From assembly GCA_947625505.1 (NCBI GenBank), contig CANQON010000002.1, positions 73,984-137,983 on the forward strand: a stretch of DNA of 64,000 bases, read 5' to 3'. The notes under the pieces were generated by a model, which was not told the origin of the DNA, did no database searches, and saw only the letters and a list, made by a program, of their open reading frames with translations. Position 1 is the stretch's first letter. Each line of letters begins with the position of its first letter. This document shows, piece after piece, positions 48,733 to 52,481 of this stretch. A program made the translations under genes and the position numbers. The DNA comes from an uncultured Bacilli bacterium (GTDB lineage: Bacteria > Bacillota_I > Bacilli_A > RF39 > UBA660).

Positions 48733-48760
48733 AAAAAAGAAGATAATAAATTATCTTCTG
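48733..48760 (-). terminator. Rho-independent terminator (minus strand)
   Basis: The reverse strand reads AGAAGATAAT-TT-ATTATCTTCT followed by T6. Overlaps the stop of the YjcZ-like gene. Confidence 0.6.
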
Positions 48761-48924
48761 TTATTTGAACCATCAAAAGCACGTGCTCCTATAACGATTA
48801 CTAATAAAATAAATAATACTAATATAATTGCTGCACCATATCCTACATTATTGTTATATCCTCCGTTATTACATCCTCCAGTAGGATATCCTCCATATCC
48901 TTGATATCCACCATAATAATACAT
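48751..48924 (-). CDS. YjcZ-like tiny Gly/Tyr-rich membrane protein (57 aa), absent from the ORF track
   Basis: The reverse strand reads GGAGGGATTAT-ATG MYYYGGYQGYGGYPTGGCNNGGYNNNVGYGAAIILVLFILLVIVIGARAFDGSNNRR. A G/Y-rich head followed by an ILVLFILLVIV helix matches the sporulation-associated YjcZ family pattern. Confidence 0.6.
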   Translation of the reverse strand: MYYYGGYQGYGGYPTGGCNNGGYNNNVGYGAAIILVLFILLVIVIGARAFDGSNNRR

Positions 48925-49024: not shown

Positions 49025-49053
49025 TTGACAAAAACAATAAAATATGATAGTAT
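49025..49053 (+). promoter_or_regulatory. Sigma-A-type promoter for the riboswitch-controlled transcript
   Basis: TTGACA (49025-49030), 17-nt spacer, TAGTAT (49048-49053). Confidence 0.5.
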
Positions 49054-49061
49054 ATAGCATG

Positions 49062-49187
49062 TTGAAAGGGAGTAGTTCTCATTTTCGAATGATTTTAACT
49101 CGTCAATCGATGATTCGTCATCCGGGTTAAAAGGTATTTAATATTGAACAAGACTTTTACATATTGTGTAGGAGTCTTGTTTTTTTG
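49062..49187 (+). ncRNA. yybP-ykoY-family (Mn2+) riboswitch with intrinsic terminator
   Basis: GAAAGGGAGTAG (49064-49075). Hairpin TCATT-TTCG-AATGA. Then CTCGTCAAT. Hairpin GATGA-TTCG-TCATC. Then CCGGG. Hairpin TAT-TTA-ATA. Then TTGAACAAGACTTTT. The order and conserved blocks parallel the Lactococcus lactis yybP-ykoY aptamer as I recall it. The aptamer's 3' strand overlaps the 5' arm of a 13-bp terminator (ACAAGACTTTTAC / GTAGGAGTCTTGT followed by T6). Confidence 0.7.
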
Positions 49188-49233
49188 TTTTTTAATGATT
49201 CCTCACAATTAATTAACTAAAGGGGGAATATAT

Positions 49234-50346
49234 ATGGAAGATTATGAAAAAGCAAAGTCAATGATAGAAGAAATAATAAAAAACATACCAGAAAGTATTA
49301 AAGGAAAGGATCTTGAATTAGTAGCATATATCTATGTTAAAATTGGACATATGATTAATTATGATCAACAAGCTGCTGATATAATCGATGCTCATTTAGG
49401 GGGATTAGATCGTGAACGAGCATATGATATGGTAGTAGAGCCTGCCAGTGATATTAGATCTTTAGCAAGAAGTAGAGCTCTATGCAAAGGATATGCTGAA
49501 GTATTATGTTATATATTAAATAGATTAGGTATTCAAACTATTGAAGTTAGTTCAGGGGATCATGCATGGAATCAAGTATTGATTAATGGTGTTTGGTATA
49601 ACTGTGATTTAACTAATGATACAGAAGCAACAAGAGGAGAAAAAGATTTTCGTTTCTTTTTAGTTAGTGATGAAGAAATGAAAAGAAAACCTAAAACAGA
49701 GACTCGTACCTGTGAAACTTCATTAGATGACATTAAACGTCGTGAAGTAACTAAAAAGACTATAAAAGTTGTTGAAAGAGAAGAAAACATGCAAACATTT
49801 AGTGAAATTATGGATCAGTTAGAAGGAAAAATTAGTACTGATGATTTACTTGTTGCTTGTAAGGTAGAATATGATGTCCATGTATCTTATACTATTTATG
49901 ATCATTATGAACCTACGGATATGATTGAACATTTAGTTAGAATAGATCCTATAAGAACTTTAATTGTAAAGCATAAAACATTAACAAAGGAAATGTATTT
50001 AGATACTGATACTCTTGAATTTATAGATCCTATAGAATATAGTCAGTCCTTTGATACAGAGGAATGCCATTTTGGGGGACGCATAAATGACCCATATTTA
50101 GAGGCTCGTCTTGAAAAACTAGAAGCAAAAAATATGAATCGACGTGGATATTTTATGACTTTTAGAGAATTTATTAAGATAAAATTAGGTATTGATGTAA
50201 GTGAAGTTACTTTAAGACAAGCTAGTATCTTATTAAAACTTGCTAACATAGTAAGATCAAAAAAATTCACTTTAAGTAAAAGTTCTGTAACAGCTAAAAA
50301 ACAATTAGATGAAAAAGTTTATTTGAAAAAACCTCAAAAAAAATAG
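49234..50346 (+). CDS. Cytoplasmic transglutaminase-like (Cys-His-Asp) domain protein
   Basis: Transglutaminase core RALCKGYAEVLCYILNRLGIQTIEVSSGDHAWNQVLINGVWYNCDLTND. No signal peptide. GGGGGA RBS. Confidence 0.75.
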   Translation: MEDYEKAKSMIEEIIKNIPESIKGKDLELVAYIYVKIGHMINYDQQAADIIDAHLGGLDRERAYDMVVEPASDIRSLARSRALCKGYAEVLCYILNRLGIQTIEVSSGDHAWNQVLINGVWYNCDLTNDTEATRGEKDFRFFLVSDEEMKRKPKTETRTCETSLDDIKRREVTKKTIKVVEREENMQTFSEIMDQLEGKISTDDLLVACKVEYDVHVSYTIYDHYEPTDMIEHLVRIDPIRTLIVKHKTLTKEMYLDTDTLEFIDPIEYSQSFDTEECHFGGRINDPYLEARLEKLEAKNMNRRGYFMTFREFIKIKLGIDVSEVTLRQASILLKLANIVRSKKFTLSKSSVTAKKQLDEKVYLKKPQKK

Positions 50347-50375
50347 AATAATTATTTCTTTATAGTTGATTAAAG

Positions 50376-50406
50376 AAAACTACCATTAAAATTTATGGTA
50401 GTTTTT
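50376..50406 (+). terminator. Rho-independent terminator
   Basis: Stem AAAACTACCAT / ATGGTAGTTTT with loop TAAAATTT. Confidence 0.75.
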
Positions 50407-50516
50407 AATTTATATTTTACATGTCATTTCTTATAACTATAAGTTAAAAATTATTTAAAAATTATAATAATTATGATATATTATTATATGAGAGGATAGT
50501 AAAATGGTGATGAGGT

Positions 50517-51710: not shown

Positions 51711-52481
51711 ATGATAGATGAATATATAGAAAAAACACATCTTGCTATTAACGAAGGAAAGAAAAATTTACTTAAAGGAAAATTAGATAAAGGTACTTAT
51801 TATCGCGTTTTAGAGGAATATTTTAGTAGTATATATCAATATGTTAAAGATCATATTAATGAGATAGATGCTAATACATTCGCACGTATTACTAGTCTTG
51901 AAAATAACGTTGATGATTTCATTGTTCCATTTAAGACACATATGGAAGCACCTAATGAAGTAGATAATAGTGATGATTATTTATTAGAAACGATTGTTTA
52001 CTTTACTAGAAAACAATTAAAAGTTAAAGAATCTGTTGAATTTAGTACAGATAACTTACGTAAGTATGATAGTACTGCTAATACATATGTTAAAGATATG
52101 TGTAAGCGTTTAGGATTATTATGTTATTGCTTTAATATTGCCGATATATTTGATATTCCTAAAAATCATAATATTGCCATTGTTAAAGTAGATGAACGTT
52201 ATTATTTAGTTGATACAACATACCAACAATATTTTATGTTAGGTCAGAACTTTAAAGATCGCTATTTAAAGAGTGAAGAACATGTTGTTACTTGTGAAGT
52301 AGGAGCACGTATCTTAGGTATTAATAAAGAGGGTACTATCGAATTATTAGAAAGAGGATTTATCGATACCCAAGACATTATGTTTGAAGATTATTTTACA
52401 ACGATGTTTGAACAATATAGTAAAGAACCTTTAGTAGGAGAAGAATATTTAGATATAATCTTAAAACATTTTAATAATTAA
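51711..52481 (+). CDS. Hypothetical cytoplasmic protein, possibly a distant Cys-His-Asp (transglutaminase/papain-like) fold
   Basis: In VKDMCKRLGLLCYCFNI...NHNIAIVKVDERYYLVDTTYQQ the order and spacing of Cys, His and Asp resemble the core of 49234..50346. This is a weak match. Confidence 0.45.
   Translation: MIDEYIEKTHLAINEGKKNLLKGKLDKGTYYRVLEEYFSSIYQYVKDHINEIDANTFARITSLENNVDDFIVPFKTHMEAPNEVDNSDDYLLETIVYFTRKQLKVKESVEFSTDNLRKYDSTANTYVKDMCKRLGLLCYCFNIADIFDIPKNHNIAIVKVDERYYLVDTTYQQYFMLGQNFKDRYLKSEEHVVTCEVGARILGINKEGTIELLERGFIDTQDIMFEDYFTTMFEQYSKEPLVGEEYLDIILKHFNN

Follow-up and report, generated by a model that had tools for sequence, protein, structure and literature searches.

A CGG-type yybP-ykoY riboswitch in front of a gene for a soluble transglutaminase-like protein in an uncultured Bacilli bacterium

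In a 64-kb stretch of DNA from an uncultured Bacilli bacterium (lineage RF39, UBA660; positions 73,984 to 137,983 of contig CANQON010000002.1, assembly GCA_947625505.1; hereafter the window), the leader of a single gene, which encodes a 370-residue transglutaminase-like protein, carries a real yybP-ykoY riboswitch: a known class with an atypical target. We consider it likely that the element, a member of the CGG type which most probably senses Mn2+, acts as a transcriptional ON switch for this gene; a Mn2+ switch with ON logic had been proposed in an initial annotation made from the sequence alone. The Mn2+ riboswitches described so far almost all control exporters or membrane proteins and are regarded as fail-safe switches for efflux (PMC8632737, PMC11672702). 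An intact member before a soluble papain-fold enzyme, together with a conserved pairing to a second soluble protein family (PF15891) described below, widens the expected regulon, and each of the two proteins is a tangible candidate for an intracellular response when Mn is in excess.

Membership of the family was established with a covariance model of our own. The pattern GGAGTAG..GTCAA..CCGG occurs once in the window and in none of 100 shuffles, and the 141-nucleotide (nt) leader folds better than shuffled sequences (z = -5.4). A scan of a genome collection (~600 gigabases, Gb) with GGAGTAG-N(5-35)-GTCAA-N(30-60)-AAGAC returned at least 120 loci, many of which must be chance matches because only 17 bases are fixed in ~600 Gb; a filter on closing of the P1.1 helix, GGGAGUAG and CAAGAC left 32 candidates, against ~88 chance matches inside genes, and removal by eye of one probable chance match (L122) left 31 structured members. 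These show two registers of the internal loop L3, a 'CGG' type (CG, UCAANNC, the P3.2 helix, then CGG), to which the window belongs, and a 'UGGC' type with a paired GUCA, frequent in Proteobacteria and predominant in the Rfam model. MAFFT alignment and RNAalifold on the 31 members recovered only P1.1 and P1.2, since P2 and P4 vary in length. The model, R1, was built from 19 CGG-type members with the window excluded, using hand-specified P1.1 (6 pairs), P1.2 (3), P3.1 (9) and P3.2 (5); base-pairing was not a factor in the choice of seeds.

R1 matched the window at 49062-49161 with 64.9 bits (E 1.3e-16) over model positions 1-106 of 106, a score inside the range of the seeds themselves (58.7-82 bits). 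All 23 modelled pairs are canonical in the window, and ten of them differ on both sides from the commonest pair of the family, including 4 of the 9 modelled pairs of P3.1 and 4 of the 5 in P3.2, whilst the second pair of P1.2 shows compensatory changes relative to the family. Held-out true members scored 26-49 bits (E. coli mntP 37.1, L102 49, L117 45.4), and ~87 loci in which the three sequence blocks occur together by chance gave no R1 match at E<=10 except L122 (17.9 bits) and L008 (26.2 bits), the latter being a real member, since a TerC gene lies downstream. A sequence-only model of the same alignment (R2) gave the window 31.0 bits, thus ~34 bits of its R1 score come from base-pairing. 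Across the 31-sequence family alignment, paired cells make up 88%, whereas shuffles reach 61% and sliding the partners by one position gives 43%, with compensatory change at 21 of 23 pairs and covariation in both P1.1 and P1.2; being fitted to the model, the alignment is biased in its favour, which is why the slide control and the negative-control loci were included. That the reference set is authentic is shown by downstream genes of the expected cation-transport type: TerC (L009, L017, L029, L102 and L008, as well as the Bacillus-type member L079), GDT1/UPF0016 (L061), Na_Ca_ex (L069, L072), OAD_beta (L066, L113) and P-type ATPases with a visible DKTGTLT motif (L073, L117). Small non-membrane open reading frames (ORFs) come first after three other true members, a 109-residue Zn_ribbon_TFIIB protein behind the aptamer L110:1972-2067 and ORFs of 142 and 127 residues with no Pfam match behind L059:2120-2212 and L126:2233-2324; these are naive ORF calls, and the real regulated gene may be farther downstream.

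The elements of the leader and its gene are as follows (window positions).

49025-49053, plus strand: promoter-like site, TTGACA at 49025-49030, a 17-nt spacer and TG-extended TAGTAT at 49048-49053, 10/12 consensus matches
49062-49161, plus strand: yybP-ykoY-type aptamer, full extent of the R1 match
49064-49068, plus strand: P1.1 5' strand GAAAG, the switch helix, pairs with CUUUU at 49154-49158
49069-49074, plus strand: L1 5' strand GGAGUA, counterpart of L. lactis G8-A13, with A10 as the residue of the cross-helix A-minor contact
49075-49078, plus strand: P1.2 5' strand GUUC, pairs with GAAC at 49146-49149 (4 base pairs, bp)
49079-49092, plus strand: P2 hairpin UCAUU-UUCG-AAUGA, 5 bp, UUCG cap
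49093-49102, plus strand: P3.1 5' strand UUUUAACUCG, pairs with CGGGUUAAAA at 49123-49132, 10 contiguous bp
49103-49108, plus strand: L3 bulge UCAAUC; U49103, C49104 and A49105 correspond to L. lactis U39, C40 and A41
49109-49122, plus strand: P3.2 hairpin GAUGA-UUCG-UCAUC, 5 bp, UUCG cap
49135-49143, plus strand: P4 hairpin UAU-UUA-AUA, marginal, 3 A-U bp
49150-49153, plus strand: L1 3' strand AAGA, containing the invariant AGA and followed by C49154, which closes P1.1
49146-49193, plus strand: intrinsic terminator, 17-bp stem at 49146-49182 with a 3-nt loop, U-tract at 49183-49193
49222-49226, plus strand: Shine-Dalgarno sequence GGGGG, 7 nt 5' of the ATG
49234-50346, plus strand: ORF, 370 residues, soluble transglutaminase-like protein
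50375-50406, plus strand: second terminator-like hairpin, 12-bp stem, 3' of the ORF

Every element that the initial annotation had listed for a yybP-ykoY layout was found in the leader: CGUCAAU lies at 49101-49107, CCGG at 49122-49125 after the second UUCG-capped hairpin, and UUGAACAAGACUUUU at 49144-49158, within which CUUUU pairs back to GAAAG through five pairs (G.U, A-U, A-U, A-U, G-C). In this family two coaxial legs meet at a four-way junction (three-way in some members) and are docked through L1 and L3 (PMC9190785, PMC6649816, PMC12153347); an adenosine of L1 contacts a P3.1 C-G pair in A-minor fashion (PMC6649816, PMC12153347), the AGA of the L1 3' strand is invariant (PMC6649816), C40-A41 of L3 are invariant and N7 of A41 is the Mn2+-selective ligand (PMC9190785, PMC6649816). 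The M_B metal site is formed by G9, U39, C40, A41, U44 and C45, the phosphates of U44 and C45 ligating the metal (PMC9190785), whilst P1.1 is the switch helix, P2 is optional (PMC6649816, PMC12153347) and P4 is dispensable (PMC6649816). In the window GGAGUA, invariant in all 31 aligned members, is intact, as are the L1 3' AAGA and the L3 UCAA, with C49104-A49105 aligned to C40-A41 by the covariance model (so that A49105 is the A41 equivalent) and C49101-G49124, next to L3 in P3.1, the predicted A-minor receptor pair. A check for substituted nucleotides in L1 and L3 found none; the sole change is an L3 one nucleotide shorter. The junction helices, P2 as a 5-bp UUCG hairpin and P4 as a marginal 3-bp hairpin, are both optional in the family.

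The closest structural counterpart is L. lactis yoaB, whose crystal structure has been described (PMC9190785, PMC6649816). Both have a four-way junction with P1.1/L1/P1.2/P2 on one side and P3.1/L3/P3.2/P4 on the other, L1 strands GGAGUA...AAGA, an L3 which begins UCAA with the A41 equivalent and a P3.1 which closes as ...UCG/CGG..., and both are transcriptional ON switches (by structure in the case of the window) in which the P1.1 3' strand is common to the terminator. They differ in L3 (UCAAUC, 6 nt, compared with UCAAUUC, 7 nt, in yoaB), in a P4 cut to three A-U pairs, in P2 and P3.2 hairpins with UUCG loops, and in the target, which is a P-type ATPase in L. lactis. Bacillus-type yybP/ykoY members (L017, L079) share the CGG-type L3 register and the layout of the window and score higher with R1 (82 and 75.8 bits compared with 64.9), and their targets are TerC-family membrane proteins. 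In contrast, E. coli mntP and alx are translational switches with the 'UGGC' register and a paired GUCA, alx without P2, and both control Mn exporters, whereas the window has a transcriptional, CGG-type element.

The link between aptamer and gene expression lies in the terminator. The 3' strands of the aptamer (P1.2, L1 and P1.1) fall inside the terminator 5' arm over 13 of 13 nt, hence the two structures are mutually exclusive; the sharing of the 3' strand had been recognised in the initial annotation, which described a 13-bp terminator at 49148-49187, whereas the stem is 17 bp at 49146-49182. The terminator hairpin alone has a predicted energy of -19.7 kcal/mol, and by nearest-neighbour energies the fold with P2, P3 and the terminator reaches -32.6 kcal/mol (minimum free energy, MFE, -38.8 kcal/mol) compared with -13.3 kcal/mol for the aptamer fold, which counts secondary structure only; termination is therefore the predicted default and a ligand would be needed for read-through. 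The Shine-Dalgarno sequence is free in all predicted folds, therefore control would be transcriptional. In the ligand-free MFE fold, GAAAG of the P1.1 5' strand pairs with UUUUC at 49082-49086 in a small 5' hairpin (49064-49086), which would additionally disfavour P1.1 in the OFF state. Together, the complete overlap and the modelled energies favour the anti-termination logic that had been suggested from the layout, and the same ON design is known for L. lactis yoaB and S. pneumoniae mgtA (PMC9190785, PMC6649816).

We infer the following course of events. Transcription would start near 49060; without metal, GAACAAGACUUUU (49146-49158) would pair with 49166-49182 into the 17-bp terminator and RNA polymerase would stop in the U-tract at 49183-49193. 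At high Mn2+ the ion would bridge the docked L1 (GGAGUA/AAGA) and L3 (UCAAUC) and stabilise P1.1 and P1.2, so that the 3' strand would be kept inside the aptamer, the terminator blocked and the ORF at 49234 reached by read-through. The strong terminator and the predicted OFF default would also fit a terminated leader of ~130 nt whose main function is to act in trans as a small RNA, with control of the ORF being secondary, and a preprint on S. aureus reports that this riboswitch family interacts with an sRNA; we regard this as very improbable, as cis-regulation fully explains the architecture, and no target or complementary sequence was seen, though none was sought.

The predicted start directly 5' of the aptamer follows from the promoter consensus match. 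The gene upstream of the leader lies on the opposite strand, and the unit controlled by the riboswitch is monocistronic because the hairpin at 50375-50406 ends it (two terminator-like sites were found where 0.3 were expected); promoter-like sites for ftsW follow at 50444-50484, after this hairpin. The only gene before that second terminator thus encodes, as first described, a soluble protein: the 370-residue product (pI 5.7, grand average of hydropathy -0.48) has no signal peptide and no hydrophobic segment, the highest 19-residue Kyte-Doolittle mean being 1.01. Six homologues were found among 5.8 billion clustered proteins, one of them 51% identical, and Cys84 (ALCKGY), His110 (DHAWNQV) and Asp125 (YNCDLT) are invariant in 6/6, in an order and spacing which fit the C-x-G-[FY] ... 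H-A-W ... D pattern of the Transglutaminase-like superfamily (PF01841). Pfam PF01841 (Transglut_core) itself scores 16.6 bits on the protein (E 0.0096), below the gathering score of 23; the domain is carried by the homologues P0004 and P0006, and the homologue at locus L137 scores 22.4. A partial match to the NCBIfam MAG6410 family, a Mycoplasma transglutaminase-related lipoprotein, reached 52.8 bits against a cut-off of 450. The profile of the homologues matches PDB entry 9CRN (S. pyogenes TglA, a transglutaminase-like domain protein) with E 2.7e-12, which bears out the canonical Cys-His-Asp core assigned in the initial annotation.

Structure prediction points the same way. In an AlphaFold (AF2) model residues 1-135 have a pLDDT of ~88 and the C-terminal half is not modelled confidently; the top Foldseek matches of the N-terminal domain are 9CRN (E 1e-4), 4XZ7 (a TGase) and 3ISR (a putative cysteine protease), with TM-scores of 0.2-0.28, low because the C-terminal half is unmodelled. 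The protein resembles these three in the profile or fold of its N-terminal domain and in the Cys-His-Asp arrangement, although identity to 9CRN is only ~21% over ~150 residues, and the C-terminal 200 residues have no detectable relative. PADLOC defence-system models matched neither the protein nor its neighbours, and nothing relevant on what S. pyogenes TglA or 9CRN does emerged from a search of the literature. Sequence and model thus identify a predicted cytoplasmic transglutaminase-like (papain-fold Cys-His-Asp) protein.

Several observations weigh against a Mn2+ switch that serves this gene, and they concern the family model in Rfam, the loop and helix details, the metal and the target in turn. 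RF00080 (Rfam 15) gave no match to the window at the gathering score of 45 bits, nor at E<=10 on 331-nt and 108-nt slices, whereas the Bacillus-type L017 and L079 are detected (58.5 and 51.6 bits). The initial annotation had named a sub-threshold RF00080 score as counting against a riboswitch, and that outcome did occur, yet it carries no diagnostic weight: E. coli mntP, a riboswitch validated by experiment, scores 41.6 bits, and amongst eight structurally complete members from other genomes two from Bacillus pass, with the scores just given, one reaches 27.4 bits and five have no match at E<=10, the missed members including ones upstream of TerC, P-type ATPase or Na_Ca_ex genes. The shortfall of RF00080 was observed on loci L007:5462-5558, L009, L012, L059, L066, L069 and L073. 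The reference set validated above by its downstream genes thus includes Rfam-missed members. In the RF00080 model (177 positions) the L1 5' strand is unpaired, the model ends after P4 and the P1 3' strand (AAGAC...) is absent. We therefore reject its silence as evidence of absence, since positive controls fail too, and pipelines which rely on RF00080 will under-count the class, especially in AT-rich uncultured lineages. The missing Rfam match is also what would speak for a chance resemblance without any riboswitch, the terminator then serving as a plain attenuator or closing a transcript that comes from upstream. The probability of this is close to nil and we consider it effectively refuted by the R1 score with its E-value of 1e-16 and its 23 of 23 pairs, by the failure of ~87 chance carriers to score, by the insensitivity of RF00080 and by the opposite orientation of the upstream gene. 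One of the control loci, from Paenibacillus silvestris, also holds an unrelated cspA-thermoregulator-like match (L009:3213-3610, plus strand; 77.4 bits, gathering score 78).

The second group of objections lies within the aptamer. L3 of the window has 6 nt, a length absent from the 19 CGG-type members, whose loops measure 7 nt (16 members), 8 nt (two) or 9 nt (one); the position lost is that of U43 or U44 in L. lactis, where the phosphate of U44 ligates Mn2+ (PMC9190785). P4 comprises no more than three A-U pairs, and its predicted instability, with inclusion costing +2.5 kcal/mol (-13.3 compared with -15.8), means that it may not form. Metal selectivity in the yybP-ykoY family is moreover not predictable from membership alone (PMC6649816): no member is strictly Mn-specific and the S. 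pneumoniae member binds Ca2+ more tightly than Mn2+ in vitro (PMC6649816, PMC11672702). A variant aptamer, in which the shortened L3 without the U43/U44-equivalent position shifts the preference to Ca2+ or another divalent ion and the transglutaminase-like enzyme answers to another signal, would accommodate these points as well as the atypical gene association and the 6-nt L3 variants found in the AT-rich PF15891 sub-group, such as L214 with an identical UCAAUC. We judge it improbable, because the nucleotides credited with Mn2+ selectivity (the A41 equivalent, C40 and the G-G-A of L1) are unchanged, L102 has a 6-nt L3 and precedes TerC, and opening of the closing pair G49109-C49122 would restore a 7-nt L3. 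In addition, the L3 loops of E. coli mntP and alx differ in sequence from that of L. lactis, and chimeras are reported still to respond to Mn2+ (earlier work cited in PMC6649816). Mn2+ thus stays the most likely ligand of the window element.

The third group concerns the target. Nearly all targets on record are membrane or cation-transport proteins (PMC8632737, PMC3766115), and the product of this gene is neither; a position upstream of such a gene (TerC, MntP, GDT1/UPF0016, P-type ATPase, YybP) characterises the family without defining it. A literature search found no paper in which yybP-ykoY and transglutaminase are both named. Two further assemblies of the same species carry the leader (L001 and L002; 98% identity), with few substitutions, which fall outside the helices and loops or in the junction, and with the promoter-like site kept apart from a 1-nt change in the -10 element; the ENA contigs ERZ27248980 NODE_115 and ERZ27249416 NODE_280 belong to this species; as only same-species copies at this identity exist, close leader relatives are uninformative for covariation. 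The locus of the 51%-identical protein (L003) offers only 58 nt upstream, without a U-tract. The upstream regions of P0003-P0006 gave no R1 match, these homologues lying in operons with gaps of 28-68 nt, and a metagenome scan with the protein alignment yielded 80 loci. Of these, 64 are complete at the 5' end and offer 200 nt or more of upstream sequence, and none of the 64 has an aptamer in front of the gene.

The pairing of riboswitch and transglutaminase is therefore a lineage-specific recruitment seen in one species only, and this confinement makes a conserved Mn-related function of the protein less supported. It also feeds the view that the aptamer is functional and its link to this gene an evolutionary accident, the gene having been inserted behind the riboswitch or having replaced an exporter, with no Mn-related role; this would be a statement about biological meaning, not mechanism. 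The restriction to the window, L001 and L002, the absence from 64 testable relatives and from P0003-P0006, the operon setting of most relatives and the nearly orphan status of the full-length protein all favour such an accident. Against it, promoter, aptamer, terminator, ribosome-binding site and ORF are intact, tightly spaced and kept in three assemblies, and the PF15891 pairing described next indicates that non-transporter targets can be selectively maintained. We hold an accident to be possible though rather unlikely; any role of the protein in physiology under Mn excess is putative.

The PF15891 sub-group emerged from the metagenome scan, in which the only R1 match amongst the 80 loci was L137:1824-1913 (42.5 bits). 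This aptamer is separated by 1.1 kb from a short homologue of the 370-residue protein encoded upstream, has its own promoter and terminator and precedes a soluble 151-residue protein of PF15891 (nucleoside 2-deoxyribosyltransferase-like). From 576 close relatives of that protein ten more loci (L213-L222) were sampled from five gene neighbourhoods, and in 11 of 11 PF15891 loci a yybP-ykoY aptamer (33-54 bits) lies 80-180 nt upstream of the gene (~145 residues) on the same strand, for example:

L216:1329-1421, L214:1333-1421, L215:576-665, L219:1322-1417 and L213:1318-1423: PF15891-linked aptamers

A terminator sharing the P1 3' strand follows the aptamer in all six loci that were folded, one per genomic context. 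The aptamers have a three-way junction without P2, a linker UUAAAUG and P1.2 as GUCC/GGAC, and they covary: 92% of pairs are formed, whereas shuffles give 78% and slid partners no more than 48%, with compensatory change at 12 pairs. The members L137 and L213-L222 share with the window near-identical 5' UUGAAAGGGAGUAGU and 3' ACAAGACUUUUA strands, AT-rich hosts (26-29% GC in these metagenomic loci, 26.7% in the window), a terminator-based ON design, a soluble target and invisibility to RF00080, which found 0 of the 6 PF15891-linked members tried at E<=10. Their L3 is 6-7 nt long. They differ from the window in the three-way junction and in a gene pairing kept across at least five genomic contexts, compared with one species. 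A literature search found no paper that mentions the yybP-ykoY riboswitch together with 'deoxyribosyltransferase'.

As this pairing is conserved, soluble targets are not unique to the window, and selection on the PF15891 target is evident. This raises the possibility, which we put forward tentatively, that in very AT-rich, uncultured, probably Bacillota bacteria of gut or rumen yybP-ykoY riboswitches have been recruited to cytoplasmic enzymes too and not only to efflux; if true, the response to Mn2+ excess in this group would include intracellular enzymatic remodelling. Alternatively, the short-L3 sub-group may sense a different ion or signal. The atypical target of the window rests on one species; the broader pattern of an Rfam-invisible sub-group which controls soluble enzymes in AT-rich bacteria is most worth following. 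Locus L137 further carries a T-box leader (RF00230; L137:3113-3301, plus strand; 102 bits, gathering score 93), which is consistent with a Bacillota-type host for these AT-rich contigs.

Around the leader, a 57-residue Gly/Tyr-rich ORF with a hydrophobic C-terminal tail lies at 48751-48924 on the minus strand, divergent from the riboswitch promoter. Its likeness to YjcZ, a family of tiny sporulation proteins, is sub-threshold (Pfam 19.1 against 21 bits; TIGR01732 18.4 against 21.35), and this sequence resemblance hints at a spore-forming Bacillota host. Behind ftsW, a 256-residue ORF (51711-52481, plus strand) was considered as a paralogue of the 370-residue protein, which the comparison does not support (BLASTP E 1.7, hhalign probability 2%); it has no Pfam or NCBIfam match, and a C...H...D pattern seen by eye (MCKRLG / NHNIAIV / YLVDTT) is an unsupported resemblance to the transglutaminase-like core. 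Farther downstream the window contains a 6S (SsrS) RNA (RF00013; 57652-57833, plus strand; 66.2 bits, gathering score 46.4); cmscan with Rfam 15 placed no other family above its threshold anywhere in the 64 kb.

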